A stretch of 64,000 nucleotides of DNA, from contig JADFXH010000010.1 in NCBI GenBank assembly GCA_015233675.1, forward strand, positions 7,284-71,283, given 5' to 3'. Origin of the DNA: Candidatus Omnitrophota bacterium (GTDB taxonomy: Bacteria > Omnitrophota > Gorgyraeia > Zapsychrales > Fredricksoniimonadaceae). Numbering within the stretch: the stretch's first letter is position 1; the number at the start of each line of letters is the position of its first letter. The translations under genes and the position numbers were made by a program. Of this stretch, positions 2,461-37,219 are shown piece after piece. The notes below the pieces were generated by a model. The model did not search any database and was not told where the DNA came from. It worked only from the letters and a program-made list of their open reading frames with translations.

Positions 2461-2871
2461 TCAAATATAATATTTGGAAATGCGTCCCTTCCCCTTGTTA
2501 GCGTATCTGCCGGAATCCGTATCTTCATCCGCTTTATATGGTATCTTCCGTGTTATTCCCAATTGACGAAGCTCTTGGCGAATTCGCATGACATCTTCTT
2601 CATCCGTCCAATCATAGGTATAAACGCAGATGACTTTAACATTTGAATTTGTTGTGTTGGGATTTACCTTAGCTGTGGCTACCTTTGATTCTTCCCCTAG
2701 TTTTCCTGCTTCAGTCGCCAATTTAATCTTGGACCATGCATTATCGATCCGTTCAATGGGAACAAAAATCAACCACTTACCACCATTTTTAGAATGCGGC
2801 GGATATGTTCCTTGCAGTCGGTTAGCAAAGAGCCAGCATTCACTAGTTTCTTGAGAGGGATTTATTTGCAT
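2461..2871 (-). CDS. DUF1917/Bles03-like small protein (136 aa)
   Basis: The pattern GGKWLIFVP..IDNAWSKIK.ATEAGKLG...KVICVYTYDWTDEEDVMRIRQELRQLGI..KIPYKADEDT matches my memory of this family. The start overlaps the upstream helicase gene by 29 nt. Confidence 0.5.
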   Translation of the reverse strand: MQINPSQETSECWLFANRLQGTYPPHSKNGGKWLIFVPIERIDNAWSKIKLATEAGKLGEESKVATAKVNPNTTNSNVKVICVYTYDWTDEEDVMRIRQELRQLGITRKIPYKADEDTDSGRYANKGKGRISKYYI

Positions 2872-20770: not shown

Positions 20771-21781
20771 TTATTTCAATCTTTTGCGTTTCTCTGTTTT
20801 ATGTTCAAGCTCTTTGACGACGCGATCAAAATCAGAAATGTAATTCTTGCCCCTCTCCTTACGGTATTTTCCAAACTCTTCTTCCGCTTTCTGCGCAGCC
20901 GCCTCAGCGCTGACACTTCCGGCATTTGTTAAACGCCCCCGTTCGCTCAATTTCAAAAAATCATCGAGTTTCGTAATCCAATCTGCCATTTTCATTAATC
21001 GGCCGTTAGTCGCTTGCAACTCCGCGAAATCAAGATACATGGACACAATCAAATTAAGCTGTTTAAGTTCACCTTCTGTAAGATAATTCTTGGCGATCTT
21101 GATATCCTGTGCCGTGATGTAATTACCCTTAAAGCTTGTCAGCCCCATCATCGGCTTTTTTCTGTCCGCACGCTTTGAAATGATTTCCGCTGCGGTATGG
21201 CCATGGACGGCATAGTGCATCTTGTTTTGCACAGTCGCAAAAAACTCATTAGTTATTTTTTCATCCTTGCGGTAATCAATACTTGTGACATAAATATCCG
21301 TGACTTTCTGGTAAAAATTGCGCTCACTGCTCCTGATGTCCCTGATACGCTGTAATAATTCCTGAAAATACCGCTCCTTCTGGCCCCCTTGCTTGAGCCG
21401 TTCATCATCCAACGTAAAGCCCTTGATAATATATTCTTTCAACCGCTGGGTCGCCCAAATACGAAATTGCGTGCCCTGCAAAGACTTAACTCTATACCCA
21501 ACCGAGATGATCACATCAAGGTTATAGTGCTTAACGCCATATTCTTTCCCATCAGTTCCAGTACGTCGGAATTCCCGACATACTGATTTTTCATCAAGTT
21601 CGCCCTCTTTAAAGGCATTCTGAATATGCTCAGTGATGGTAGTCCGGCCTTTATTAAAAAGGTCTGCCATCTGATCTTGTGTTAACCAGACGGTTTCATC
21701 TTCCATCTTTACCTGAATCTTCGTCTGGACATCATCAGTTTGATATAAAATGATCTGCGATGGATCCTTGTCTTTATTCAT
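20771..21781 (-). CDS. RhuM-family virulence/phage-associated protein
   Basis: IILYQTDDVQTKIQVKMEDETVWLTQDQMADLF...YNLDVIISVGYRVKSLQGTQFRIWATQRLKEYIIKGF is the canonical RhuM N-terminal region. Confidence 0.8.
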   Translation of the reverse strand: MNKDKDPSQIILYQTDDVQTKIQVKMEDETVWLTQDQMADLFNKGRTTITEHIQNAFKEGELDEKSVCREFRRTGTDGKEYGVKHYNLDVIISVGYRVKSLQGTQFRIWATQRLKEYIIKGFTLDDERLKQGGQKERYFQELLQRIRDIRSSERNFYQKVTDIYVTSIDYRKDEKITNEFFATVQNKMHYAVHGHTAAEIISKRADRKKPMMGLTSFKGNYITAQDIKIAKNYLTEGELKQLNLIVSMYLDFAELQATNGRLMKMADWITKLDDFLKLSERGRLTNAGSVSAEAAAQKAEEEFGKYRKERGKNYISDFDRVVKELEHKTEKRKRLK

Positions 21782-22431: not shown

Positions 22432-24045
22432 ATGGCGATAGTGAATAATCCCGAAAAAGAAAAAAAGCAGATTAATTGCGCTATCTACACAAGAAAATCT
22501 ATTGCTGATGGTCTTGATCGTGACTTTACAACGCTGGACGCTCAGCGTGAATCCTGCGAGAGCTATATCGCAAGCCAAAAGCATGAAGGCTGGATTTGTT
22601 TATCTGAAAAATATGATGATGGCGGCTTTACAGGTGCAAATATTGAGAGGCCTGCCCTTCAAAAGCTTCTATCGGATATTAGGGCAGACAAAATTAACTG
22701 CGTTGTTGTATATAAAGTTGACCGCCTATCGAGATCGTTGCTCGATTTTGCCGAGCTCCTTTCTTTATTTGAAAAACACAACGTGACCTTTGTATCGGTC
22801 ACCCAGCATTTTAACACGCAAAACTCCATGGGCCGGCTGACGCTTAATATTCTCCTGTCCTTTGCCCAATTTGAACGTGAGATCATAAGCGAACGGACCC
22901 GCGATAAAATGGCTGCATCTAAAAGGAAAGGCAAATGGGTCGGCGGGTGCGTTCCCATAGGATATGATCTGGATAGAGCAAACCGCAAATTGGTCGTCAA
23001 TCCTGCGGAAGCAAAGATTGTGCAGGAAATATTCGAGGCTTACCTAAAAGAAGGAACGCTGATCTCGGCCACACGGTTTATCAATGATAAAGGTTATTTA
23101 ACCAAAAAATACGCCTCCACCACCGGCAAACGGCGAGGCGGCGGTAAATTCAAAAGCTCAACACTTAACCAAATAATCAAAAATCCATATTACTTGGGCA
23201 AGGTCCGGCATGACAATGTTTTATATCCGGGCGAGCAGGAACGAATTATTTCAGATGAAATCTTTGAACAAGCTCAGGAGCTTCTGGCTACAAACAGACG
23301 GGTGTTTTGTCTCAAACCAAAACATTCCAAAATTGGCCTCTTAAGCCATATCCTGCGTTGCAACGCCTGCAATTCAACCATGTACATTGCTTATACAGAG
23401 AAACATAAGAAATTCAAATATTATCATTACGTTTGCCTTGGCGCGCACACGCGTGGTTATAAAGCTTGCCCCACCAAACTAGTTAATGCCAATCTGATGA
23501 ACAATAAAGTCGTGGAAAGCCTGCGATCTATTACAGAAGATCCTCGAATTATTGGAGACAAATGGGACCAGCTTAGCCTTGATCATAAAATCCCAATTAT
23601 CAAATCAATAATCAAAGAAGTGCGTTATAACGGCGGCACTGAGATCTTGGAAATCCAGTTACACGATGATAAAGTGCATACCTTTAACGTGCCAAAACAG
23701 GAACTAAAACATGTGCCTGCCACAGCCAAGGAGAATCTTATAAAAAAGGAGCCGCAAATAAGACAAAATTTGCTGCTCGCTCATCAGATTCAAAGTCTTC
23801 TCTCCGAAGGCAAATCAAACCATTTAAAACAGATTGCCGGATGGCTTAACATCAGTCAACAAAGAATCAACCAATTACGAAATTTCGTGCTCCTATGTCC
23901 CCAAATACAGGAAGAAATATTCTTAGGCGATAACAACATCCTCTCCAATATCCCCGAATACAAGCTGCGGCAAATCTCCAATACGATCGATTGGCAGGAA
24001 CAGGAAAAACTCTGGCAGGATCTGCTCAAGACGCTCCTTAAATAA
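22432..24045 (+). CDS. large serine recombinase
   Basis: CAIYTRKSIADGLDRDFTTLDAQRE carries the catalytic Ser. Also VVVYKVDRLSRS, and the zinc-ribbon-like CNACNSTMY...YHYVCLGAHTRGYKAC. Confidence 0.9.
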   Translation: MAIVNNPEKEKKQINCAIYTRKSIADGLDRDFTTLDAQRESCESYIASQKHEGWICLSEKYDDGGFTGANIERPALQKLLSDIRADKINCVVVYKVDRLSRSLLDFAELLSLFEKHNVTFVSVTQHFNTQNSMGRLTLNILLSFAQFEREIISERTRDKMAASKRKGKWVGGCVPIGYDLDRANRKLVVNPAEAKIVQEIFEAYLKEGTLISATRFINDKGYLTKKYASTTGKRRGGGKFKSSTLNQIIKNPYYLGKVRHDNVLYPGEQERIISDEIFEQAQELLATNRRVFCLKPKHSKIGLLSHILRCNACNSTMYIAYTEKHKKFKYYHYVCLGAHTRGYKACPTKLVNANLMNNKVVESLRSITEDPRIIGDKWDQLSLDHKIPIIKSIIKEVRYNGGTEILEIQLHDDKVHTFNVPKQELKHVPATAKENLIKKEPQIRQNLLLAHQIQSLLSEGKSNHLKQIAGWLNISQQRINQLRNFVLLCPQIQEEIFLGDNNILSNIPEYKLRQISNTIDWQEQEKLWQDLLKTLLK

Positions 24046-24369: not shown

Positions 24370-24447
24370 TGGTAGCCCCAACCGGATTTGAACCGGTGTT
24401 TTCTGCCTGAGAAGCAGACGTCCTGGACCAGGCTAGACGATGGGGCC
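24370..24447 (-). tRNA. tRNA-Glu (anticodon CUC), CCA encoded
   Basis: Manual cloverleaf: acceptor GGCCCCA/TGGGGCT, D arm GTCT..AGGAC, anticodon stem TCTGC/GCAGA with loop TTCTCAG, T arm ACCGG-TTCAAAT-CCGGT. Confidence 0.9.
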
Positions 24448-24564
24448 GTATCAATATCGAATGTTAAGGATATCTCAAAGCTTCTTAATCGTCAACAAAT
24501 ATCGTTGACACTTGGCACCTTGAATTTATAATCAAGACACGGGGTTTCAACCAGCAATCACCTC

Positions 24565-25773
24565 TTGACCTTAAGGAGAATTTACTTGCCTACCAGTATC
24601 AGTATTGGATTCAGCCAGCACTCCGATCCTCAAGAAGCCACTTTACAGGCTTGTGTACATGTAAAAAATCACCTCAACAGCATCGACACCGATTTAATCA
24701 TTATCTTTGCCTCTCCTCAATACGTTGTCCCTGAAATTCAGACAATCATAACCCGTACTCTTAGGCCAAAACACTTAGTCGGATCTTCCACCGGCGGCAT
24801 TATCTTATCCAATGGCGTTACTAACCGGGGCATCGCTATTGTAGGTATTAATTCCACCGACATGGTCTTTGGAGTTTCCGCTGTAAGAGACATCGAAAAT
24901 CAAGATGTATATGCTGTCGGGCTCGACCTGGCGCACAAAGCGATCCGTGATTTAAACTCATCCCATCGGGAAGTGTTCATCACTTTTTCGCAGGGTATAG
25001 AAAAAAATTGTCCGCAATTTATCCGCGGCGTTAAAGAAGCATTAGGCATAGGCTTCCCTGTCCTGGGAGCCGTTTCAAGCGATGATTTCAAGTACAAAAA
25101 ACTCTCTCAATTCTTTCAGGATCAAATATTACAAAATTCCGCAATTGGTCTTTTGCTGGGAGGGACATACCCTCTTGCTATTGGTTGTAAAAACGGCTTT
25201 AAACCTCTGGGAAAGCCTCGCACCATAACTAAAGTCGACGGCCATATAATCCATACTATTGACAATAAACCAGCAGTCGAAATTTATAAACATTTTTTGG
25301 GATCCGAGGCCGAAGGGCTGAAAGACGCCACTTTAAATTCGTACGCAGCAATGTACCCGCTTGGCATTTACCTGGAAGATTCCCGCCAATATTTGTTACG
25401 CAACATCATTGACATCTTGGCAGACGGTAGTATTGTATGTCATGGAGGCATCCCTCAGGGCGCTGAGGTGCATTTGATGATCAGCAATAATGAGTCCTGC
25501 CAAAACTCTGCTATCGAAGCGGCGGAATTAGTTAAAGACTCTCTCGCAGATAAGCAGGCTAAACTGATCCTTGTATTTGAGTCCTTAGCCCGTCATAAAA
25601 TCCTGGGACGTAATGCTTTCAGCGAAATTCAGGCCATCAAAAATGTTTTAGGCCATACAACGCCGATTGTCGGCATGTGTTCCTATGGAGAGATCGGCCC
25701 ATTTAACACGCTGGATAACGTGAAGAATATTTATTTGCATAACGAAAGTATTCTTATTATAGCCATTTCCTAA
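24565..25773 (+). CDS. FIST (FIST_N + FIST_C) sensory domain protein
   Basis: DLIIIFASPQY, and near the C-terminus GMCSYGEIGPF. The likely true start is the TTG at 24586, which has AAGGAG at 24573-24578. Confidence 0.75.
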   Translation: MTLRRIYLPTSISIGFSQHSDPQEATLQACVHVKNHLNSIDTDLIIIFASPQYVVPEIQTIITRTLRPKHLVGSSTGGIILSNGVTNRGIAIVGINSTDMVFGVSAVRDIENQDVYAVGLDLAHKAIRDLNSSHREVFITFSQGIEKNCPQFIRGVKEALGIGFPVLGAVSSDDFKYKKLSQFFQDQILQNSAIGLLLGGTYPLAIGCKNGFKPLGKPRTITKVDGHIIHTIDNKPAVEIYKHFLGSEAEGLKDATLNSYAAMYPLGIYLEDSRQYLLRNIIDILADGSIVCHGGIPQGAEVHLMISNNESCQNSAIEAAELVKDSLADKQAKLILVFESLARHKILGRNAFSEIQAIKNVLGHTTPIVGMCSYGEIGPFNTLDNVKNIYLHNESILIIAIS

Positions 25774-25847
25774 CAAGGAAGATTTTTTGTTTATTCTGTT
25801 GCATATTCGATAACGCGTCTGCCGCGAGATGGCCGGCCAGACCTAAA

Positions 25848-27401
25848 ATGGACATCATGGACACGACGTCTCCTCTAATCTTATGGGCATTAGGTATCAT
25901 AATTCTTATCCTGCTATGCACCTGCGGCTATCTATTTTATGTTTTAACCACTCAGGAAGAAACCATCAAGAAAATGAAAGAAGAGCACGCCAAGCTGATG
26001 CGTTCTTTCAACGATTTAGACGAACAAGCGAAACTGATCATCCTCACTGATTTGGAACTTAATAAAACCCGGGAAGAAATGGATAAACGTCTCAATGGTT
26101 TAAATTCTCTTCAAAGGACATCCCGGCAGATAAGCCAGGCGCTTAATGAAAGTGAAGTTTTTCAAAAAATTTCTCCAGCGCTTTTCGAAGATTTGGGGTT
26201 CTCCCGCGCCCTGATCGTCACTGCAAATGATAATAACTTTTTAAAAGTCCGCATTAACGTCGGCTATAAAAATCCCCGTGCTGAAGCTATATTGACAGAT
26301 ATTGACTCTGAGGAGCCTCTTAAAAAAATTCTTTATGAAACCCACTCGCTTTCTTCCATCAATTGTCCTAACAAAATTAAAGAAAAAATAGTCAAAGTAT
26401 TTGAAGCTGAACATTTTATATTCTCTCCTATTGTAACCCAGACCGGAAATATCGGATTTGTTTTCGTAGGCAACCGGTATACCGCTTCTATGGTGACACA
26501 AGGAGAAGAAGAGCTGATCACCATTCTCTCGGGACAAATAGGCCAGTCAATCGAAAATGCAAAGCTATTTGAAAAAGTTTTCCACTCAAGCCAGGCATTG
26601 GAATTAAAAGTTGCGGACCGCACCAAGCAATTGGCCAGTGCCCTGCAAAAAGTCAACGACATCAGTAAGAAAAAAACAGAATTTATTTCCGCCGTTTCAC
26701 ATGAACTCAGGACCCCTTTGACTTCTATCAAAGGATATGCCGCCATACTCATGGCCGGAAAAATCGGCGAAATCCCTGTTGCTGTCAAAGAGCGTCTGGC
26801 CAAAATCAATTCCCATTCTGATAATTTGGTCTCCTTGATAAATAATCTGTTGGACATCGCGCGTATTGAATCCGGCAGGCAAGAGATGAAATTCGTTCTT
26901 TCCAAGATTAAAAATATTGTCGATAATGTCTCCGATTTGCTTACACCCCAAATGACCACCAAAGGCGTTAACCTGCATTTGCTCCTTCCTGAACAAATAG
27001 GGGAAGTTTACGCCGACGCTTCCCATATTGAGCGTGTCCTTATTAACCTGTTAAGCAATGCCATTAAATTTACGCCCCCCCAAGGGACGATCACCATAGC
27101 TGTTGCGCCAATTCCCGATGACGGATATGCCGTCTTTAACGTTTCCGATACCGGCATCGGTATACCTGCGCCGGAGATACAAAAACTTTTCAGTGAGTTT
27201 TACAGGGTTGACAATGAAATCAACCAAAATGTCAAAGGGACCGGTTTGGGGCTGGTACTGGCTAAGAATATTGTCCAGGCGCACCACGGTAAAATGTGGG
27301 TCCAGAGCAAGGTGGGGATGGGAACTTCATTTTATTTTACCTTGCCCTGTTCCCAAAAAGCATTTGAAGATCACTTAACCCAAGAGAAAACCGATGCGTA
27401 A
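25848..27401 (+). CDS. membrane sensor histidine kinase with GAF-like domain
   Basis: N-terminal TM segment. H-box SHELRTPLTSIKGYA, N-box LLSNAIKFT, G-boxes DTGIGIP and GTGLGL. Confidence 0.9.
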   Translation: MDIMDTTSPLILWALGIIILILLCTCGYLFYVLTTQEETIKKMKEEHAKLMRSFNDLDEQAKLIILTDLELNKTREEMDKRLNGLNSLQRTSRQISQALNESEVFQKISPALFEDLGFSRALIVTANDNNFLKVRINVGYKNPRAEAILTDIDSEEPLKKILYETHSLSSINCPNKIKEKIVKVFEAEHFIFSPIVTQTGNIGFVFVGNRYTASMVTQGEEELITILSGQIGQSIENAKLFEKVFHSSQALELKVADRTKQLASALQKVNDISKKKTEFISAVSHELRTPLTSIKGYAAILMAGKIGEIPVAVKERLAKINSHSDNLVSLINNLLDIARIESGRQEMKFVLSKIKNIVDNVSDLLTPQMTTKGVNLHLLLPEQIGEVYADASHIERVLINLLSNAIKFTPPQGTITIAVAPIPDDGYAVFNVSDTGIGIPAPEIQKLFSEFYRVDNEINQNVKGTGLGLVLAKNIVQAHHGKMWVQSKVGMGTSFYFTLPCSQKAFEDHLTQEKTDA

Positions 27402-28323
27402 AGAACGAATTTTAGTTATTGATGACGACCCTGATATCCGTGATGTCCTTGACCTGAGCTTGTCAGAACATTACTCTGTCTTCGCGGCAAGTAACGGCAA
27501 AGAAGGTTTGGAGATGGTAAGGACCAAAAACCCGGATTTGATCATCACCGACTATAATATGCCCGTAATGAATGGCCCGGAATTCTGCATCCAGTTGCGC
27601 CGTGACATACTGCTGCGCCATTTGCCCGTCATCATGCTGACCGGCAAAGGCGAAACCAAGGACATGGTCACCGGCATAGAATCCGGAGCAGACGACTATT
27701 TAATCAAACCTTTTGAGCCCGAAGCCCTGTTGGCGCGAATCCACATGATCTTAAAACGCACCACCCGTTCACTGGACGCAAATCCCCTGACCCACCTGCC
27801 GGGCAATTCTTCCATTATGGAAGAATTTCAAAGCTATATCGACAACGACAAGCCCTTTGCTGTTGGCTATGTGGATCTTGATAAATTCAAAATTTATAAC
27901 GATAAATACGGATTCGAACACGGAGACGAGATCATCCGTTCACTGGCCCGCATTCTCATTGACGCCACCCAGCAGTCCTGCGGAAAAGACGCCTTTGTCG
28001 GCCATATCGGCGGGGATGATTTTGTATTTATCTGTGAAGATGCCAAGGCTGACGCTATCAGCCAGAACATCATAGATGCCTTTGACAAGCTCTCCCCGGG
28101 CTTCTATAACAACGAAGACCGCTCTGCCGGTTTTATTATGGGAGTCGACAGGCAAGGAAATACAATCAAAGCAGGATTAGTCTCCGTGTCCATCGGCGTT
28201 GTCAGCAATGTTACCCAGAAGATAACCCATGTGGCCCAGATCGGAGAGCTCGGCGCGGATTTAAAGAAATTTGCTAAATCAATAGGAAAAAGCAATTTTC
28301 AAAGGGACCAGAGGAAAAAATAG
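27394..28323 (+). CDS. response regulator: REC + GGDEF-family domain with variant GGDDF motif
   Basis: REC: ILVIDDDPDIRD...DLIITDYNMPVMNG...KPF. GGDEF-like: YVDLDKFKIYNDKYGFEHGDEII...VGHIGGDDFVFI. Overlaps the kinase gene by 8 nt. Confidence 0.85.
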   Translation: MRKERILVIDDDPDIRDVLDLSLSEHYSVFAASNGKEGLEMVRTKNPDLIITDYNMPVMNGPEFCIQLRRDILLRHLPVIMLTGKGETKDMVTGIESGADDYLIKPFEPEALLARIHMILKRTTRSLDANPLTHLPGNSSIMEEFQSYIDNDKPFAVGYVDLDKFKIYNDKYGFEHGDEIIRSLARILIDATQQSCGKDAFVGHIGGDDFVFICEDAKADAISQNIIDAFDKLSPGFYNNEDRSAGFIMGVDRQGNTIKAGLVSVSIGVVSNVTQKITHVAQIGELGADLKKFAKSIGKSNFQRDQRKK

Positions 28324-28328
28324 CCCCC

Positions 28329-28398
28329 AAAAAGGTGTCAAAAAAGGTGTCAGTTCTCTTTTTGGAGAACTGACACCTTTTTTTGACACCTTTTTTTT
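28329..28398. terminator. bidirectional intrinsic terminator (stem of about 30 bp flanked by A and T tracts)
   Basis: AAAAAGGTGTCAAAAAAGGTGTCAGTTCTC-TTTTTG-GAGAACTGACACCTTTTTTTGACACCTTTTTTTT, located between convergent genes. Confidence 0.8.
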
Positions 28399-28416
28399 GT
28401 TCGGGAGAGCTATTTA

Positions 28417-31400
28417 CTATGAACATCTTCCCCTAATGCACTTTTTAGGACTGGAACAATTTGAAGAACAAGTTATGAGTCCACAAGAATCTGCATATGT
28501 TGTTGTGCTGCATTTACCAGAACAACTAGGCTGACAGCAAAGATTGCCGGGGGTACTACATTCCAGTCCCGTAGCGCAAACAGAAGAGCAGCAAAGTTGA
28601 CCCTTGCCTCCACACGTAGCACATTTCCCAGTACTAGTATTGCAAGCCAAACCAGCACTAACATCGCAAGTATTGCCAGCACAGCATATTTGTCCGACGC
28701 CCTCGCCACATGGTGGACATAAGCCAGTAGCTAAACATGTGCCGGCACCGCAGACTGAGCCAGCACAGCACTCTTGACCAGAGCCGCCGCAAAAACAATT
28801 GCCTGCAACGCAGCTAAAATTAGAATTACACCCCCCATTAGACGTCGATGGAGCACAGCATGCTTGCGTAGGGGCCCCGCCTCCACACGAAGTTGTAGCT
28901 CCGCTACAAGAGTATAGTTTTACAAGACATGTCCCTGAAGTAGCACTATCCGCGCATCCGGCGCCCGGAGGCGTATCAAATGCATGTGATTGAACCGTGA
29001 AACCAGTATTGCCAGCGCACAGGAGCCCAATACAATTTGGAGGAGACTCTCCCGGATTCCCGCAAACCGTTTTATTAGCAACTACCGGAGCCGCGGTGAA
29101 AGATACTAACGTCTCTCCACAACAAGTGTTATTACCATTGTAATTGATGCAAGTCGTTCCGCTGATGGAACAGCCCGGGCCGGAAGAACAGCACTGATTA
29201 CCACTAAGACCACAAACAGGGTTAGGCTTGCAATAAGCACCACTGCCGGAACCGGTAAAAGTAGATGCTGAATCACACTCCGCCTGGCAAGGCGTCGGGG
29301 TTGCCGGACAGGGATTAACCAAGGTATAAGATGTTGTGTTATTGCTAGGCTGGCTGTTATTGCCGCATGGTTGAGAATTGGCAGGCAGCCCCTGACAGGA
29401 ATCCAGCTGACAAGCACTGCCATCAAAATAATAACCCGGACTGCATTCCGCCTGACAGGCTGCCGGAATTGTAGGACAAGAGCTAACTAAAGTGAATGGG
29501 GTTGTGCTATTGGCCGCAGAAGTGTTATTAGCGCACTCCGTCGCATTCAGGGGCAAAGCCCCTTGGCAAAGATTCGTCTGGCATTTATTAATATTCGTGT
29601 CACAGACATATCCTGTATCACAAGTGCTGCCGTCACAACATGCACTGCCCCACGTGCCGCCACCACAACGAGTCTCGTGCACTAATGGTGCCGGGTGGGC
29701 ACAGCCTGGGGAATATACAGCGCAAGTAAATCCTTCCGCATGTTTAGCATTGCCAACACCAGAAGTTTGGGAGGAACAGGTTTTCCCATCGTATTGTATA
29801 AGCTCACTCAGGCCACCCTCATGCCATATCACTTGATAAATATCCGCATTGGAACCGTATAAGCCCTGGCAGACATTCTTTAAAGTGTCGCCCGTCGCAT
29901 CAAAACCTATCCAATACAAGCTAGTACAATTCCCTTTAGAATCCCATGCAGTACAATAGGAATGATCCCCGCAAAACGCATTTCCTTGGCTGTCAAAGGT
30001 ATCATGTCCATTTTTCATCTGCTCTACCAAGAAGCAGCAGTTAGGATTGTTTGTCCATTGGCCTGAAGCACATTGTGCGCTAATATTTCCTCCAGCACAA
30101 CATGGTCCGCTTCCACAACTGGGTGTAATACTCGAACAACTATACGTTGCGGTTTGGCCGCTGGCTGTCCCGGCGCCAAATGTTGCATTGCCACATGTCG
30201 TGCTGACCGTCGTATCCGCTAAACAACTGTTTGGCTGGCAAGTGCCGCTTATACAAGTATTCCCGGCATTACAGTTGCCCGAACAGCATGTCTGTCCGGC
30301 GTCGCCGCAGGCTGAAGCTGCAGAACAGCAGGAGTTACAATCAAAGGTATGGCCCATGTCTGTGCGGTTCACCCCGCATGCGTTGGCGGTACTGAAACAT
30401 CCGTCCCCAACATCGGGCAGCGGCGTTGCCTGTCCGCAAGCAAGCTCTCCGCCGCAATTTAAGGTTAGCGCACCGGTCTGGTCAACGCCAATAGAAGGTT
30501 GCTTTCCGAGAGGCAGCGTAACTGCACATACATAGACCTTTGTATTGTCCGTAGTTCCGCTGCCAAGAATAGTGCAGGATGAAAATGAGCCGCAAGCTGG
30601 ATTGCAGGAATATGAAAAACCTGCAATCCCGGTAATATTCAAACTAAGCGATTTGTTAATGCTGCCCAAGTCAGCGCAGTTTGAGGTGCAATAATGGCCA
30701 TTAAAAGTTTTATACGCATTCTGAGCTGCCGCGATGCTCTGAAGACTTGCGGTCAAATTATCCTTGATTTCCTTGAAAGAAGAACACTGATCCTTGCAGG
30801 TATTAGAAATGCTGCTGCAAACCGAACCGGAATTATTGCACTGGGTTGTACTGCTGCAGCACGGCTCATCTTGGCCGCCGCATTCGCATTGCTTAGAAGT
30901 GGCATTAAAGGCAAATCCGAGGCCGCATTCAGCCTGGCAATCAGAAGGATTATTGCAATCCCCTGCCAAGAAATACGCCGTCTGGTCCTGAATCGGTGAG
31001 GTGTTTGAACAAGATGTGGCATGAGAAGGTAAATTTATGCATTGGTTCGCCGCGCAGCTATTTGGGTTTTTGGCATCAATATGATAACGGAAGTTACATA
31101 TCGCCTGGCAGGCCGCGGGGTTAGTACAATTGCTTTTCAATGAATACGCCTCCTGATCCTTGGTAGGAAGTGGTTCGGTGGGACAATATCCCCCGTTAAA
31201 ATTATTTGGCAAGCTTTGGCACTGGTTGGCCACGCATGCACCGTTTGAATAATGGTGAGTGCTGTCGCAATTCGCTTGGCAGGCCACGGGGTTGCTACAA
31301 TCTGCCTTCAAAACATAAAGAGCCCCATCCTGCGTGGGAAGAGGAGCGCCGCTGCAGGCCGCCGCGTTAGCAGGCAGGCTCGAAGCCGCGCATTGATCTT

Positions 31401-32517
31401 GCGCGCAGCTGCCGTTCAGATAATGATAGTTGATAGCGCATTGCGCCTGGCAGGCCACAGGATTGTTGCAATCTGCCGCCAATACAGATGCAGCCCCATC
31501 CTGCGTTGGGAGCGGGGCATTGGCACAAGCTGACGCGTGAGCAGGCAACGCCGCACACTGGTTTGCCGCACAGCTGCCGCTGGAATAATGGTGATAAGTA
31601 TCGCATTGCGCCTGACAGGAGGTTGTCCCATCACAGCTCTGACTCAAGGTAAAGGAAGCATTATTGCTGGCTGGAAGGGCCGAATTATTACAGTCTATTG
31701 CTCCGGCAGGAATGGTTAATGCCGAGCAAACATTAGGCACACAACCTTGAGGACCTGAGCAATTATGTCCGGCCAAACAGTTTGCAGACTGGCTTTGTCC
31801 GCAATTATTGATCCAGGCAGAAGTGTTGCAAACATTATTATTGGGCATGCAACATTGGTCGTTAAAACATATGCTGTTCCCTGTACAATTGGCAGGTATG
31901 CTCTGACCGCAATTATTGGTATAACTTGCCGCTATGCATGCCTTGGGAGTGTCGGGCTGGCAGCAATTGTCATTGTAACATACATTGGGGGACTGGCAAT
32001 TGGACGCGATTGTAAGCCCGCAATCGTCTGTATAGCTTGCCGCTACGCAATTGGCTGGTATTTTAGGCGTGCAGCAGTTTCCATTATAACAAACATCCTT
32101 GTCCGTGGGACAACAGTTGCCGCTACAACTGACATGGCAGGAAGCGGAACCACTACAGTCTACAATCTGCCCCTTGCAGGTCTGGCCGGGGCCGCAAGTG
32201 ACGTTGCCTGCGGGACAATTTTTGCCGCCAAAAGCGGGCGCAGGGCATTCGCAAGCGCCGTACATTACGTCAAAGCCTTTATTGCCCTGCGGTGGACAAG
32301 TGACCGGGCACCAACCGCCGTCAATTTTTTGGGGATTATTCCCCATAATAACGTTAGTCACACTATTATAATAGCCCGTTGCCGCATTGTGCACTTTGTC
32401 AACCAGGGAACCAGGGCCAAAACCGGTAATAACAACCACCGCGACCACAGCTAAAAGTAGAAGATACTCTAAGCCGGTCTGCCCTCGAGAAGAACTATGA
32501 TCAACGGGTGTCCTCAT
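28417..32517 (-). CDS. 1366-aa cysteine-rich repeat protein with Flp/class-III prepilin-type N-terminal signal
   Basis: N-terminus ...SSRG|QTGLEYLLLLAVVAVVVITGF. I counted about 167 Cys by hand. Several internal Cys-repeat families are present. It has its own promoter and terminator. Confidence 0.85.
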   Translation of the reverse strand: MRTPVDHSSSRGQTGLEYLLLLAVVAVVVITGFGPGSLVDKVHNAATGYYNSVTNVIMGNNPQKIDGGWCPVTCPPQGNKGFDVMYGACECPAPAFGGKNCPAGNVTCGPGQTCKGQIVDCSGSASCHVSCSGNCCPTDKDVCYNGNCCTPKIPANCVAASYTDDCGLTIASNCQSPNVCYNDNCCQPDTPKACIAASYTNNCGQSIPANCTGNSICFNDQCCMPNNNVCNTSAWINNCGQSQSANCLAGHNCSGPQGCVPNVCSALTIPAGAIDCNNSALPASNNASFTLSQSCDGTTSCQAQCDTYHHYSSGSCAANQCAALPAHASACANAPLPTQDGAASVLAADCNNPVACQAQCAINYHYLNGSCAQDQCAASSLPANAAACSGAPLPTQDGALYVLKADCSNPVACQANCDSTHHYSNGACVANQCQSLPNNFNGGYCPTEPLPTKDQEAYSLKSNCTNPAACQAICNFRYHIDAKNPNSCAANQCINLPSHATSCSNTSPIQDQTAYFLAGDCNNPSDCQAECGLGFAFNATSKQCECGGQDEPCCSSTTQCNNSGSVCSSISNTCKDQCSSFKEIKDNLTASLQSIAAAQNAYKTFNGHYCTSNCADLGSINKSLSLNITGIAGFSYSCNPACGSFSSCTILGSGTTDNTKVYVCAVTLPLGKQPSIGVDQTGALTLNCGGELACGQATPLPDVGDGCFSTANACGVNRTDMGHTFDCNSCCSAASACGDAGQTCCSGNCNAGNTCISGTCQPNSCLADTTVSTTCGNATFGAGTASGQTATYSCSSITPSCGSGPCCAGGNISAQCASGQWTNNPNCCFLVEQMKNGHDTFDSQGNAFCGDHSYCTAWDSKGNCTSLYWIGFDATGDTLKNVCQGLYGSNADIYQVIWHEGGLSELIQYDGKTCSSQTSGVGNAKHAEGFTCAVYSPGCAHPAPLVHETRCGGGTWGSACCDGSTCDTGYVCDTNINKCQTNLCQGALPLNATECANNTSAANSTTPFTLVSSCPTIPAACQAECSPGYYFDGSACQLDSCQGLPANSQPCGNNSQPSNNTTSYTLVNPCPATPTPCQAECDSASTFTGSGSGAYCKPNPVCGLSGNQCCSSGPGCSISGTTCINYNGNNTCCGETLVSFTAAPVVANKTVCGNPGESPPNCIGLLCAGNTGFTVQSHAFDTPPGAGCADSATSGTCLVKLYSCSGATTSCGGGAPTQACCAPSTSNGGCNSNFSCVAGNCFCGGSGQECCAGSVCGAGTCLATGLCPPCGEGVGQICCAGNTCDVSAGLACNTSTGKCATCGGKGQLCCSSVCATGLECSTPGNLCCQPSCSGKCSTTTYADSCGLITCSSNCSSPKKCIRGRCS

Positions 32518-32560
32518 AATATCCTAACTAAAGTAACCCTTAAAGACCCTAGATAATACA

Positions 32561-32589
32561 AATATAACATACCTTGACAGATTTGGCAA
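32561..32589 (-). promoter_or_regulatory. sigma70-type promoter of the Cys-rich gene
   Basis: On the minus strand: TTGCCA (32589-32584), 17 nt, then TGtTATATT (extended -10; TATATT = 32566-32561). An AGGA SD lies 6 nt before the ATG. Confidence 0.5.
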
Positions 32590-32615
32590 AAAATCATGTC
32601 ACTTTTTGTAAAAAA

Positions 32616-32981
32616 TCAGTTAAAGAAAATACCCAGCTCTCCATACTTACCTTTTTGCTTAGTCGTATAAGCTTTTTTCCAGGAAACACCGGTAAGAGAA
32701 GTTAAGATATCAATACGTACAGGCGGCTGGCCAAGCTGAATAACATTGTCCCTTTGGGTAAAATCTTCAGATTTTAACCCTATATTACCAAAGCCAAATT
32801 CTTTTAACGCTTCAATAATTCTAAAAGAATTATCCTCGCTGGGTTCAAAAAAAATATCGATATCCCCTGTCATTCGTGGAGCTCCATGAAAGGCAAGGGC
32901 ATATCCACCAACAATTATATACCTAACGTGAAGGGCATTGAATAACGCGAGCAACTCTTTGAAGTCTTTCTGAGCTTCCAT
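32616..32981 (-). CDS. nucleotidyltransferase-fold small protein (MNT/AbiEii-like NTase family)
   Basis: VRYIIVGGYALAFHGAPRMTGDIDIFF (GG..A...HG..R.T.D.D motif). Confidence 0.55.
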   Translation of the reverse strand: MEAQKDFKELLALFNALHVRYIIVGGYALAFHGAPRMTGDIDIFFEPSEDNSFRIIEALKEFGFGNIGLKSEDFTQRDNVIQLGQPPVRIDILTSLTGVSWKKAYTTKQKGKYGELGIFFN

Positions 32982-33129
32982 AAATTTGATTTCTTAGGAT
33001 TTCGACAGCGGCCACACGGTCTTTCGCAGGCCGTCTTAACCAATATTTTAAATCTTCATCGAGAGTTGAGGAATCTGTGAGGTGAGTTTTTTTGAATTTT
33101 CTTTTTATCATTGGACGTTCCATAGGCAA
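32923..33129 (-). CDS. hypothetical small protein overlapping the NTase gene by 59 nt
   Basis: ORF only. The segment ...VAAVEILRNQIYGSSERLQRVARVI resembles small proteins often found beside such NTases. Confidence 0.3.
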   Translation of the reverse strand: MPMERPMIKRKFKKTHLTDSSTLDEDLKYWLRRPAKDRVAAVEILRNQIYGSSERLQRVARVIQCPSR

Positions 33130-33181
33130 AAATTATTATAACAAATCCAAAATCATTAAAGAATAAAATAGCCGATTTAAA

Positions 33182-33883
33182 TCACAAGCTTTTAAGGCTC
33201 TTGGTGACCTCAAAGAGATTGCCGGCACCAAAAAGATAGCTGGCAGTAATTAAGATATTTGCCCCTGCTTTCACGGCTAAAGGAGCAGTTTGGGCGTTAA
33301 TGCCTCCATCTATCGCGATATCCCCGCTAAAAATCGCCTTCAAGCGCTCCAATTTAGGCAAAACTTCAGGCATGAATTGCTGGCCGGAAAACCCGGGATT
33401 GACAGACATGATCAAAACCCCGTCACAATCCTTTAAAATTTCTTCGCATAATGCCGTGCAGGGATTGAACACCACAAAAGCTTTTTTCCCAAGCCCGCGG
33501 ATTTTCTTTAAATCCGCACGCAAAGCAGGGATGTCCACCTGACTGATTTGTTTAGGCCATTGATTCCATTGGTGGCATGTTCTTAAGCGCTCCCCGTAAC
33601 ACTCAGCCTGTATCTGAATGCTGTCCGCGCCTGCTTTGGCGTAACTTTCAATATACTCTCCCGGGTGCTCAATCATCAAATGGGCTGACAACAAAAGCTG
33701 TGTGCGCTTGCGAACAGCCTCAACTATCACAGGCCCAACGGTCAAATTAGGGACAAAATGCCCATCCATGCAATCAATGTGAAAACGTGTCACGCCGGCA
33801 TCTTCGCAACGCTTGATGTCGCGGGCTAAATTTCCAAAATCAGCCGCAAGAATGCTTGCTGAAACTTCGATAGGTTTCTTCAT
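33182..33883 (-). CDS. rpe: ribulose-phosphate 3-epimerase
   Basis: SILAADFGNLARDIKRCEDAGVTRFHIDCMDGHFVPNLTVGP...MSVNPGFSGQQF. Confidence 0.9.
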   Translation of the reverse strand: MKKPIEVSASILAADFGNLARDIKRCEDAGVTRFHIDCMDGHFVPNLTVGPVIVEAVRKRTQLLLSAHLMIEHPGEYIESYAKAGADSIQIQAECYGERLRTCHQWNQWPKQISQVDIPALRADLKKIRGLGKKAFVVFNPCTALCEEILKDCDGVLIMSVNPGFSGQQFMPEVLPKLERLKAIFSGDIAIDGGINAQTAPLAVKAGANILITASYLFGAGNLFEVTKSLKSL

Positions 33884-33904
33884 GCTTGTCCAATTGCCTC
33901 AAAT

Positions 33905-33989
33905 TGGTGCGTGGGGAGGGAATTGAACCCTCACGCCTTACGGCATACGCCCCTCAAACGTACGCGTCTACCAATTCCGCCACCCACGC
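33905..33989 (-). tRNA. tRNA-Leu (anticodon GAG), long variable arm, CCA encoded
   Basis: Acceptor GCGTGGG/CCCACGC is perfect. Anticodon stem TACGT/GCGTA with loop TTGAGGG. Variable arm TGCCGTAAGGCGT. T arm GAGGG-TTCAATT-CCCTC. Confidence 0.9.
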
Positions 33990-34244
33990 GCAAATGTTCT
34001 ACCATTTCCTTCTTGACTACCGAACGTACCAGAATTTTAGCATTGCTGAGCAAGTAGCAGGGAATATTGTTTCCGCCACCCGAGCTTATTTGCTAACTGT
34101 TCTTCGCTAACGCATTCAAAGTAAAAACACTCTCGGTGCCAATCGTCACGATATCAATTTTATGTCCTTTCGCTAGAGTGACCGCAGGGATAAATTTATC
34201 CCTGCTGCCTCACTGCGTATAATAGCTTTTAAGCATTCCGGCAA

Positions 34245-35849
34245 TTATTTCCCGCAATTCAGCGCCGCCTCTATAAAACCTTTGAACAGCGGATGGGCGA
34301 CGTCAGGCTTAGACTTGAATTCCGGATGGAACTGACAGCCGACAAACCACGGATGGTCTTTGATCTCGACAATTTCCACTAAATCCCGCTCGGGATTAAG
34401 TCCCGCGATTACCATCCCTTTTTGTGTCAACTGCCCACGATACGCATTATTGAATTCATAACGATGGCGATGGCGTTCGGAAATTTTTTCATTCTTATAC
34501 GCCTCAAAACTTTTAGTCCCCTTTTCCAAAACGCACGTGTAAGCCCCCAGGCGCATGGAAGCCCCCAAATTCTCGATCTTTTTCTGTTCTTCGATCAAAC
34601 TGATGACAGGATCCGGGGTCTGGGGATCAAATTCCGTCGAGTTCGCCGCTTTGAGGCCTGCCACATTACGGGCGAATTCTATGGTCGCGATCTGCATGCC
34701 TAAACAAATACCAAAAAACGGAATATTGTTTTCCCTGACATATTTAACTGCCGCAATTTTCCCCTCGATGCCGCGGCTGCCAAAACCGCCGGGAATCAAA
34801 ATCCCATGCGCGTCTTTTATATATTTCTTAAACCCATGTGTCTCCACTTCTTCGGAATCAACTTTAAAAATACTGACCTTCGCATTATTGGCAATCCCTC
34901 CGTGCACCAGTGCCTCATAGATAGATTTATAAGCATCTTGCAATGAAATGTATTTACCCACCACCGCGATCTTAACTTCTTTGGCCGGAAAACGCAGGCG
35001 TTTGACAACCCCGTCTTCCCAACTCTTGATACCACGGTCTGCCAGCTTAATATTCAGCTTCTTTAAAATCAACTCATCTAACCCTTCTTTTTTAAGGAAC
35101 AGCGGCACTTCGTAAATATGCTTAACGTCCGCCGCTTCAATAACATCTTCCACATCCACGTTACAAAAAAGGGCTATTTTTTCGCGTTGTTCCTGAGAGA
35201 TGGGTCTTTCGGTGCGACACATCAAAATCTGGGGGATGATCCCTATTTCCCGCAAGCGCCCGACGCTATGCTGAGTAGGTTTGGTTTTCTGTTCGCCGGC
35301 AGATTTAATATAAGGCAGCAGTGTCACGTGGATATTCAACGCGTAATGCTCCCCTAATTCCCAACGCAGCTGCCTGATGGCCTCCAAAAATGGAAGGCTT
35401 TCAATATCACCCACCGTTCCGCCGATCTCCACAATGGTCACATCCACATCATTAGATTTCGAGACCTTCAGGATGCGCTCTTTGATCTCATCCGTAATAT
35501 GAGGAATGATCTGCACGGTCTTGCCCAGATAATCCCCATGGCGTTCCTTGGTGATCACGGAATAATAGACTTTCCCGGCGGTAATGCTGCTGTCTTTAGT
35601 CAGCTGGGCATGGGTGAACCGTTCATAGTGCCCAAGGTCCAGGTCTGTTTCGGCCCCGTCGTCGGTTACATACACTTCCCCGTGCTGATAGGGATTCATG
35701 GTCCCCGGGTCTACATTCAAATACGGATCGCATTTGATGATGGCCGTCTTAAGGCCCCTGGCCTCAAGTAATTTGCCGATTGAAGCCGCGGCAATGCCTT
35801 TGCCTAAACTGGAGACCACTCCGCCTGTGACAAAAATGTATTTGCTCAT
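34245..35849 (-). CDS. pyrG: CTP synthase
   Basis: [18 protein letters not shown]...; the C-terminal GATase contains GICLGMQ and HRHRYE. Confidence 0.95.
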
Positions 35850-37219
35850 ATTTCCAACTTTAGTTTATCTGTGTTTTTAGGTATTTGTGTCGGATATTTC
35901 CCGGTAAAACAAGCTGAACAAAAATTGCCCTTTTCTTTCATGACCGACAACATGCCCTCCAGGCTCAAATAATACAAGGAGTCGACTTTAATAAAATCCG
36001 CGACTTCCTTGACCGTCTTATTGTGCGCGATCAATTCTCCCGTGGATGGAAAATCAATCCCGTAGAAACAGGGAAACTTGATAGGAGGGCAGGAAATACA
36101 CATATGTATTTCCTTGGCGCCGGCCTCGCGGATCTCTTCAATACGGCTGCGGGAGGTGGTCCCCCGCACGATTGAATCCTCGATGACAACAACTGACTTG
36201 CCTTTGATCATATCTTGAATGGGATTAAGCTTAACTCGAACCCGAAAATCACGCAAAAATTGGGAAGGCTGGATAAATGTACGTCCGATATAATGGTTGC
36301 GGACTATCGCCATTTCAAAAGGCAGCCCCAACTGCTGGGCATAGCCCAATGCCGCATAAAGACCGGAATCAGGAATACCCATCACAAAATCCGCTTTCAC
36401 CGGATGTTCAATGGCCAACCGTTCTCCCAATCGTTTTCTGACCTGATAAATATTATCATTAAAAATCCGGCTGTCGGGCCGGGCAAAATAAATATTCTCA
36501 AACACACAAAAAGCGCGGGATTCGCCTACAAAGCCGGGCAGAAAAACAGACTCTAGTTTATTGCCTTTAATGATCACAATTTCACCGGGTTCTATTTCAC
36601 GCACAAACTCAGCCTTCATCATATCAAAAGCACAGCTCTCTGATGCCAGGATATACCCATCCCCTAATTTCCCCAAACACAAAGGCCTGAACCCCTGGGG
36701 ATCACGGGCCCCGACCAGGCAATCCTTCAACAAAAGCACCACAGAATAAGCCCCTTTGACTTGGGCAAATACCTTGATGAGCCATTGGGGCATGTCCCCG
36801 TTAGGGGTCTTGGCTAATAAATGTACAAAAATTTCGGAGTCCATAGAAGTCTGAAAAATCGATCCTTCATTCTCCAATTTAGCGTAAAGCTCCTCAGTAT
36901 TAGTCAAGTTCCCGTTATGGGCCACGGCAATAGTTTTTTTGCGATGAGTTACTAAAATAGGCTGGATGTTTTTTGTTGTAGAACTGCCGGTGGTTGAATA
37001 CCGTGTGTGGGCAATGGCCATATGACCGGTTAATTTACGGATATTGTCCTCATCGAAATTATCCACTGCCAGGCCGCTTTTTTTTAAGACATGGGTCTCG
37101 CTCCCGTTGTAAGAGACAATCCCCGCCGCCTCCTCGCCTCTGTGCTGCAAGGCATACAGGCCTAAAAAGGCTATTTTACTTGCTTCCTTATGATGACTGA
37201 CGCCAACGATGCCGCACAT
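35846..37219 (-). CDS. purF: amidophosphoribosyltransferase
   Basis: MCGIVGV Ntn start; PRTase motif [13 protein letters not shown]. Confidence 0.95.

Follow-up and report, generated by a model that had tools for sequence, protein, structure and literature searches.

Flp pilins, the subunits of Tad pili, are canonically about 45-80 residues long, have no globular domain, are usually encoded in tad loci and follow the processing pattern G/XXXXEY. Modular type IV pilins, such as PilB and PilC of S. sanguinis, CofB of enterotoxigenic Escherichia coli (ETEC) and TcpB of V. cholerae, combine a class III signal and a pilin helix with grafted non-pilin modules, and the largest one in a survey has 860 residues and 12 repeats (PMC8179133). 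The gene described here is located at 28417-32517 on the minus strand of a 64-kb stretch of DNA (64,000 nucleotides, hereafter the window) on contig JADFXH010000010.1 of a Candidatus Omnitrophota bacterium. It is a single intact open reading frame (ORF) and a complete coding sequence, and its product of 1366 residues contains 167 cysteines (12.2%) and is 100% identical to the NCBI entry 'MAG: hypothetical protein HQL12_07615 [Candidatus Omnitrophica bacterium]'. The cysteine-rich modules that recur along this protein are probably the extracellular part of a modular, Flp-type pilin-like protein with a class III signal, as judged from its N-terminus and its relatives. The first ~100 residues alone are the complete orthologous product in some relatives. 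In the window protein ~1,250 residues have been added to them, and in genomes where the neighbouring genes are 75-93% identical, unrelated module sets stand in place of this whole addition.

The layout of signal, helix and grafted modules is the same as in modular type IV pilins. The GFxxxE motif (IPR012902) and a complete pilin head are found in those proteins, whereas the window protein has an N-terminus of the Flp or archaeal type and a mini-head resembling a thrombospondin type-1 repeat (TSR). Its extension of ~1,250 residues, with 19 copies of three modules named a, b and c, also differs from theirs in being hypervariable between orthologues. The G/XXXXEY motif, the short leader and the hydrophobic helix are common to the window protein and Flp pilins, but the window gene is unlinked to tad genes and even the minimal orthologue has a TSR-like head. 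A first, sequence-only reading of this DNA had described the three module families. That finding is correct, yet it is the smaller part of the story: the Flp/class III prepilin-type signal and the degenerate TSR at the N-terminus were missed, as was the fact that the modules form a hypervariable cassette at a conserved locus.

N-terminus and conserved locus

The protein begins M-R-T-P-V-D-H-S-S-S-R-G / Q-T-G-L-E-Y, followed by LLLLAVVAVVVITGF. Glu17 and Tyr18 lie at +5 and +6 after Gly12, which fits the Flp pattern, and a short polar leader ending in Gly precedes ~20 hydrophobic residues with Glu at +5, as is characteristic of pilin signals. This is the sole hydrophobic segment of the protein, the remainder of which is entirely hydrophilic. 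Across 27 relatives, G12, Q13, E17 and Y18 are invariant or nearly so, and relatives carry source labels such as 'class III signal peptide-containing protein' and, from JGI, 'Flp pilus assembly pilin Flp'. The Pfam model Class_IIIsignal is matched in 26 of the 27 family N-termini and Flp_Fap in 10 (E<=1, best E 0.001). The window protein itself reaches 19.8-22.8 bits with Class_IIIsignal (E 8e-5 at 22.8; cutoff 23.7) and 12.5 bits with Flp_Fap (PF04964; cutoff 32.2), which together with its 1366-residue size places it outside the Flp/Fap family. The N_methyl model (GFxxxE, IPR012902), the signature of the modular-pilin survey, has no match in the window protein. The helix part of the 27-sequence family profile gives weak matches to the Flp pilin chains 8u1k and 8u2b determined by cryo-electron microscopy.

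Residues 62-105, which follow a conserved amphipathic helix, appear to be a degenerate TSR that is recognisable at the level of the family profile. The 27-sequence profile matches the solved TSRs of UNC5B (E 1.2e-7) and thrombospondin-1 (E 3e-6), and also those of ADAMTS13, C7 and properdin. An hhalign comparison of the family profile with the N-terminal region of P0032, a Flp-like relative encoded away from the locus, gives 97.8% probability (E 9e-13), and the aligned P0032 segment clears the Pfam TSP_1 (PF00090) cutoff at 24.5 bits. Canonical TSRs, as in TSP_1 adhesins, are found in P0032 and at the relative locus L017. The repeat of the window protein is called degenerate because its sequence alone has no Pfam TSP_1 match at E<=10 and because only W69 (in GGWCPVTCP) is left of the WxxW tryptophan ladder; L017, L019 and P0032 keep more of this motif.

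The gene lies in the order carA-carB-purF-pyrG-tRNA-Leu-rpe, then the cysteine-rich gene, then a convergent response regulator/GGDEF-histidine kinase-FIST operon, and this locus is conserved in >20 Omnitrophota genomes. The identical order surrounds the genes of the orthologues P0002, P0003, P0004 and P0150 and, among the 21 species-level genome loci that the N-terminal profile recovers, is present at 20. The sole locus outside the conserved synteny is L017, where the canonical TSR is a second one. Proteins encoded on the flanks of syntenic loci are 75-93% identical to those of the window. When the window is compared by blastn with L001, L003, L004, L007 and L014, positions 24370-36000 align at 66-85% except for 28323-32224 and 32519-33188. 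The first of these two intervals begins after codon ~98 of the gene, and the first ~98 codons align between genomes.

Orthologues are 108-119 residues (P0150, L023), ~400-800 residues or up to 1642 residues long. The minimal orthologues are located at the conserved locus (L025 10001-10327, which encodes P0150, and L023 8663-9022) and consist of signal, helix and TSR-like repeat only. They may represent an ancestral 'Flp pilin with a thrombospondin-repeat head', a type of protein that is apparently undescribed. A collection of 5.8 billion proteins contains 95 further family members, which are mostly 80-250 residues long and include some fragments. Each long orthologue differs in its module content. 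Modules a and c hardly occur outside the window protein, with module c present twice in P0004, and module b is found in eight others; most other orthologues are dominated by a different module, 'CGxDxCG'. In P0007, residues ~1090-1640 are made up of about eight near-identical units of ~70 residues ('CLKN.G.GVNN.TATFPLTNAG...GTCN.GSG.A.ATCNATTG.WG...GTCC'), so recent tandem expansion does occur in the family. The picture that these comparisons suggest is of an ancestral small pilin-like gene to which cysteine-rich modules have been repeatedly added, and in which they have been duplicated and replaced.

Cysteine modules and intervening segments

The sequence-only reading had proposed at least three distinct families of cysteine module. 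Hidden Markov models (HMMs) of the modules, framework counts and shuffles all agree with this, and every conversion that it had made from residue to nucleotide positions is correct. Each family has six conserved cysteines, and the positions of all copies are listed in Table 1. Module a had been described as three tandem copies with a further one reused at the C-terminus. An HMM of the three tandem copies recovers the C-terminal copy at residues 1327-1358 with 12.6 bits and is negative at all other positions of the protein, and none of 1000 composition-preserving shuffles reaches this score (maximum 10.7). Similarly, an HMM of the five tandem copies of module b (b1-b5) recovers both of the two additional copies that had been reported, at residues 987-1041 (24.1 bits) and 1041-1088 (20.9 bits), and no score among 1000 shuffles is above 6.6 bits. 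Tile BLAST between module b copies gives up to 69% identity and E 3e-28 for neighbouring copies. The figure of at least eight copies of module c also stands: the pattern CG-x(2-8)-CC-x(2-8)-C-x(3-9)-C-x(3-9)-C, which was composed after viewing the data, has eight starts (residues 546, 737, 951, 1102, 1211, 1243, 1270 and 1302), and 2000 shuffles average 0.36 occurrences, with at most 3. Profile support for module c is weak because its loop lengths vary, and an HMM of four copies finds only one more, at 7.3 bits.

The modular architecture is evolved and not an artefact, as had been claimed from the divergence of the copies. A gapless repeat search of the DNA finds periods of 108-111 nt for module a, 171 nt for module b and 84-93 nt for module c, with copies 62-82% identical. 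At this identity the copies are old, and recent duplication and assembly artefact are excluded. Tandem Repeats Finder reports no relevant array in the DNA because the copies are too diverged. The subtypes of module b are also common to several orthologues: P0003, P0004 and P0007 each have a first b copy that groups with b1 and distal copies that group with b6-b7, which argues for the age of the copies. Copies b2-b5 arose by an expansion specific to this lineage.

The modules of the window protein match no model in Pfam or NCBIfam, even when regions are scanned singly at E<=10. An exhaustive search of 1.84 billion representatives with a module b profile finds 132 proteins at E<=1e-3, of which 35 are at E<=1e-10. 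A word-indexed search of the 5.8-billion-sequence collection with a 22-copy module b profile returns nothing at E<=0.01 because the profile is too short for an E-value on that collection. The broader consensus of module b is CxGxxPxNAxLCxGDDxGLxxxTxxxLVxxCTxxxKCEYxCxxGYxxxGxxC. Its relatives are secreted or anchored proteins with PKD, CARDB, Big, GLUG, Lcl_C or dockerin domains, and pilin-type N-termini are present alongside module b in roughly ten of 138 proteins examined.

Like Sushi (complement control protein, CCP) and EGF-like domains, module b appears to be a small disulfide domain rich in beta structure, with a 'C..GY...G..C' hairpin at its C-terminus. The Pfam Sushi cutoff is cleared by 11 of 41 module b relatives, only by summed partial matches to profile positions ~18-51, which correspond to the 'Y.C..GY...G..C' hairpin. 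When single copies are compared with Sushi (PF00084) at E<=1, 5 of 70 family copies match and none of the 7 window copies does. Module b has six cysteines and lacks the conserved Trp, whereas Sushi requires four cysteines and this Trp. A full Sushi assignment is rejected, since the matches are partial and in relatives only and the cysteine count differs. Profile searches of the PDB with module b return only factor H (E 2.1). EGF-type Pfam families give weak matches in 1-4 of the 70 b-type copies (best E 0.005) and none to modules b and c of the window protein. An AlphaFold 2 (AF2) model of the copy at residues 321-376, built from a 70-sequence alignment, has five short beta strands and a predicted local distance difference test (pLDDT) score of 82.4. 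Foldseek finds no significant PDB or viral match to this model, and the best PDB match is EGF-like (E 4.4). The partial Sushi matches, the model and the Foldseek result together identify module b as an uncharacterised six-cysteine beta domain. By sequence and predicted fold it has a Sushi/EGF-like C-terminal hairpin, but it is a demonstrated member of neither family. A match to well-known domains such as EGF would have counted against the sequence-only reading, and the evidence comes only marginally near to one: relatives of module b have partial Sushi matches, but the window copies have none and the predicted fold has no significant PDB counterpart.

Module c had been likened to the small carbohydrate-binding knottins of the CBM1 and hevein type, and this likeness is not borne out. 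There is no CBM_1 or chitin-binding Pfam match at E<=10, the consensus CGGxGQxCCxSxxxCxxGxxCxxxxGxC has no conserved aromatic residues, those of CBM1 being absent, and its C-CC-C-C-C framework differs from that of CBM1 and hevein. The tandem module c copies, and c1 alone, have no match to any Pfam model at E<=10. The best solved-structure match of the module c profile is the cone-snail toxin Mo3964 (2mw7; E 0.008). Framework XXXII conotoxins of the M-superfamily (Mo3964, Lv32.1) have a C-CC-C-C-C framework and a CGxxGQxCC start (PMC9741281), and module c has the same framework with a 'CGxxG[QE]xCC' opening. These conotoxins are animal venom peptides, and the resemblance in cysteine framework and opening is striking but almost certainly convergence. 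CBM1, hevein, granulin and EGF assignments for the modules were all rejected for lack of a profile match. Module a has no match in any search except for 5 bits to one P0006 module; a kinship with the 'CGxDxCG' modules that dominate the orthologues has this one copy as its support and is unproven.

Modules a, b and c account for ~60% of the extension, and other cysteine-bearing segments, including residues 579-700 and 831-950, fill the rest. Within the first of these segments, residues 591-638 (30604-30747) are 41% identical over 49 residues to the head of P0013 (pairwise BLAST E 1e-6), a genuine type IV pilin (GFTLIE) in which module b is present too. An internal pilin head is a lead only, as phmmer, PDB and Pfam searches do not reproduce the match, and the segment is possibly a buried pilin-head remnant or a chance similarity. 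The second segment, for which no relatives were detected in any search, may be the actual ligand-binding or catalytic head. Apart from cysteine, the protein is abundant in Ser, Gly, Ala, Asn and Thr. It contains 30 N-glycosylation sequons, a mild enrichment only over the 21.7 +/- 4.1 found in shuffles.

Table 1. Features of the cysteine-rich gene, in window coordinates
Feature	Position	Strand	Residues	Description
Class III (prepilin-type) signal	32419..32517	-	1-33	11-12 residue polar leader ending RG, QTGLEY, ~20 hydrophobic residues
Conserved amphipathic helix	32344..32406	-	38-58	GSLvDkVHnaAxGYYNsVTnVIMG; from family conservation and low-confidence AF2 secondary structure
Degenerate thrombospondin type-1 repeat	32203..32334	-	62-105	PxxIDGGWCPVTCP...Y.ACECPAPAFGGxxCxG; from profile comparisons
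Module a, copies 1-3 (tandem)	31762..32091	-	143-252	36-37 residues, 6 Cys each; C[YF]N.NCC.P....C.AASYT..CG.....NC
Module b, copies b1-b5 (tandem)	30880..31728	-	264-546	~57 residues, 6 Cys each
Module c, copy 1	30784..30882	-	546-578	Abuts b5
Non-repeat region	30418..30783	-	579-700	No Pfam or PDB match
Module c, copy 2	30223..30309	-	737-765	
Non-repeat domain	29668..30027	-	831-950	CCFLVEQMKNGHDTFDSQGN...WHEGGLSELIQYDGK...; 120 residues, 7 Cys, lower Cys content
Module c, copy 3	29569..29667	-	951-983	
Module b, copies b6-b7	29215..29568	-	984-1101	Same subtype as distal b copies of P0004 and P0007
Module c, copy 4	29116..29214	-	1102-1134	Abuts b7
Module c, copies 5-8 (tandem)	28540..28887	-	1211-1326	
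Module a, copy 4 (C-terminal)	28423..28539	-	1327-1365	
Hypervariable cassette	28323..32224	-		Gene body after codon ~98 and 3' spacer; ~3.9 kb; no DNA counterpart in five syntenic loci
Sigma-70-like promoter match	32561..32589	-		TTGCCA-17-TATATT with extended TG, 44 nt 5' of the ATG; consensus match only

Candidate functions

The interpretation that is somewhat favoured is that the protein is a pilin-anchored, surface-displayed adhesin that differs sharply between closely related genomes. Both incorporation into a filament and mere anchoring in the membrane are allowed by this interpretation. The process would begin with cleavage after Gly12 by a prepilin peptidase. The N-terminal helix would then insert into a Tad/type-IV-like filament, most plausibly as a tip or bulky subunit, or would merely hold the protein in the membrane. 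The modules would fold oxidatively in the periplasm to give disulfide-locked beads, which would form a long, rigid, protease-resistant stalk whose binding surfaces are offered to a substrate or to the cells of a partner or prey. Over short evolutionary times, as modules are gained, lost and duplicated, the binding specificity would shift or evasion of recognition would be aided. The six conserved cysteines, the compact model of module b and the scarcity of CxxC motifs suggest that the modules are structural and disulfide-bonded. Modular pilins with adhesive modules are documented, and presentation of such modules at the tip has been argued (PMC8179133). In one published description most Omnitrophota are host-dependent nanobacteria, nearly all have type-4a pili and many have Tad pili (PMC10066038), and a pilin-anchored adhesin fits this view. 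The same paper and a 2026 survey of Omnitrophota genomes make no mention of cysteine and treat pilins in other contexts only.

Several points weigh against the pilin-anchored adhesin. Pilus assembly genes and a prepilin peptidase are absent from the window and from the flanks of the orthologues, and the window protein scores just under the Class_IIIsignal cutoff and far under that of Flp_Fap. An ectodomain of ~140 kDa on a Flp-type subunit is without precedent and would have to pass through a secretin. Anaerobes are common among Omnitrophota, and the oxidation of 160+ cysteines is an assumption. Only the TSR-like residues 62-105, which are outside modules a-c, match a characterised domain, and they do so at the family-profile level only. 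Finally, the AF2 model of the N-terminal 149 residues (8 sequences) has a pLDDT of 41 and is usable for helix positions only.

The alternative that survives best, though it is rather unlikely, is a membrane-anchored surface-coat or 'bindosome-like' protein, in which the class III signal would serve for processing and anchoring only, no pilus would be involved and the stalk would lie in an envelope layer. Archaeal sugar-binding proteins use a class III signal for processing and anchoring in this manner, and the QxSxExxxL pattern of archaeal EppA substrates is present in the orthologues. The lack of linked pilus genes at any of the >20 loci, and the combination of a very large ectodomain with one N-terminal hydrophobic helix, would be expected for such a protein. 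Pilin genes, however, are often encoded apart from the assembly machinery. The minimal orthologues of 108-119 residues resemble ordinary small pilins with a tiny head, and the family profile resembles Flp pilin chains, both of which favour a pilin origin over a surface coat.

The cysteine content of 12%, and the many Omnitrophota that are anaerobic or metal-associated, could also point to a metal-, mineral- or redox-active protein whose thiols bind metals or shuttle electrons and form no disulfides. Conductive pilins and metal-reducing cytochromes have been discussed for Omnitrophota (PMC10066038). Heme and metal motifs are ruled out in the window protein, which has three CxxC motifs and no CxxCH, and His is scarce (1.5%). 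Fixed six-cysteine frameworks are typical of disulfide-knotted modules, and in its AF2 model module b forms a compact beta domain with no need of a cofactor, so a function of this kind is considered highly improbable.

An equally slim chance is given to a polyprotein precursor that is cut into small knottin-like peptides acting as toxins or antimicrobials against prey. Module c does have the C-CC-C-C-C framework and the CGxxGQxCC start of framework XXXII conotoxins, and predatory lifestyles have been proposed for Omnitrophota (PMC10066038). The modules, however, abut and have boundary cysteines in common, with neither spacers nor protease-site motifs separating them. There are few basic residues (K+R = 41), and the non-repeat domains that lie among the modules speak for a single folded chain. 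Likewise very doubtful is a low-complexity gene that lacks a specific function and is decaying or drifting neutrally: turnover between close relatives is very fast, and orthologues of only ~110 residues mean that the extension is dispensable, but the 4.1-kb ORF is intact, the cysteine frameworks are strictly kept across copies that are 30-50% identical, module subtypes are common to several species and long versions are present in many genomes.

A stronger version of the pilin-anchored adhesin is put forward tentatively. The single Flp-type pilin gene at the locus would be a determinant of host or prey recognition, and it would evolve as eukaryote-like, disulfide-knotted adhesion modules of TSR-, Sushi/EGF- and knottin-like types are added and replaced wholesale. 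Closely related nanobacteria would then show completely different 'bottle-brush' or tip-decorated pili. Variant-specific surface proteins (VSPs) of Giardia offer a comparison, with ~12% cysteine, a highly variable modular ectodomain and a conserved anchoring end. These are eukaryotic, CXXC-based proteins with a C-terminal anchor that belong to a switching multigene family. The comparison is a functional analogy only, as the window family has one locus per genome and its variation is between lineages.

Neighbouring genes and significance for Omnitrophota

The FIST sensor/histidine kinase/response regulator-GGDEF operon occupies 24565-28323 on the plus strand, converges on the 3' end of the cysteine-rich gene and is kept in nearly all orthologous loci. 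A link from its GGDEF protein, through cyclic di-GMP (c-di-GMP), to the regulation of surface structures is conceivable. On the 5' side of the gene, AGGA lies directly upstream of the ATG. Further upstream, between rpe and the gene, a window-specific insertion of 0.67 kb (32519-33188) has no counterpart in L001, L003, L004, L007 and L014. It holds an ORF of 121 residues for an AbiEii-like nucleotidyltransferase (32616-32981, minus strand), together with a small ORF upstream that looks like the partner of this nucleotidyltransferase. Positions 1-24450 of the window are a mobile/defence island beside a tRNA-Glu gene (24370-24447), which is 98.8% identical in L004. The island genes encode serine recombinases (708-2210 and 22432-24045), a TOTE-type AEP primase-helicase (2843-5266), DUF3800, RhuM (20771-21781) and DUF2924.

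Since modular pilins are known, as are cysteine-rich repeat adhesins, the cysteine-rich gene adds a variant to existing categories and founds no category of its own. Its unusual features are the Flp/archaeal-type signal, the TSR-like head, the size and number of the modules and the replacement of the full ectodomain between genomes with ~80-90% identical neighbours. The idea of the 'modular pilin' would be extended by it to Flp/class III-signal proteins of 1366-1642 residues with dozens of modules, beyond the sizes catalogued so far. It also provides a case of an apparent degenerate thrombospondin repeat as the head of a bacterial pilin-like protein. Module b adds an uncharacterised family of ~55-residue, six-cysteine domains that is absent from Pfam and NCBIfam.

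Omnitrophota are uncultured, widespread and thought to be mostly host-dependent nanobacteria, and the question that this locus addresses is how they recognise their partners. The conserved flanks, by which the locus is readily located, the pilin-like 5' end and the wholly different ectodomains make the gene a concrete candidate for a specificity determinant. The locus can be tracked in metagenomes, and its modules can be expressed singly for binding tests. If the stronger version is true, the family would stand as a prokaryotic equivalent of hypervariable, cysteine-rich surface antigens, with a pilin as its scaffold.

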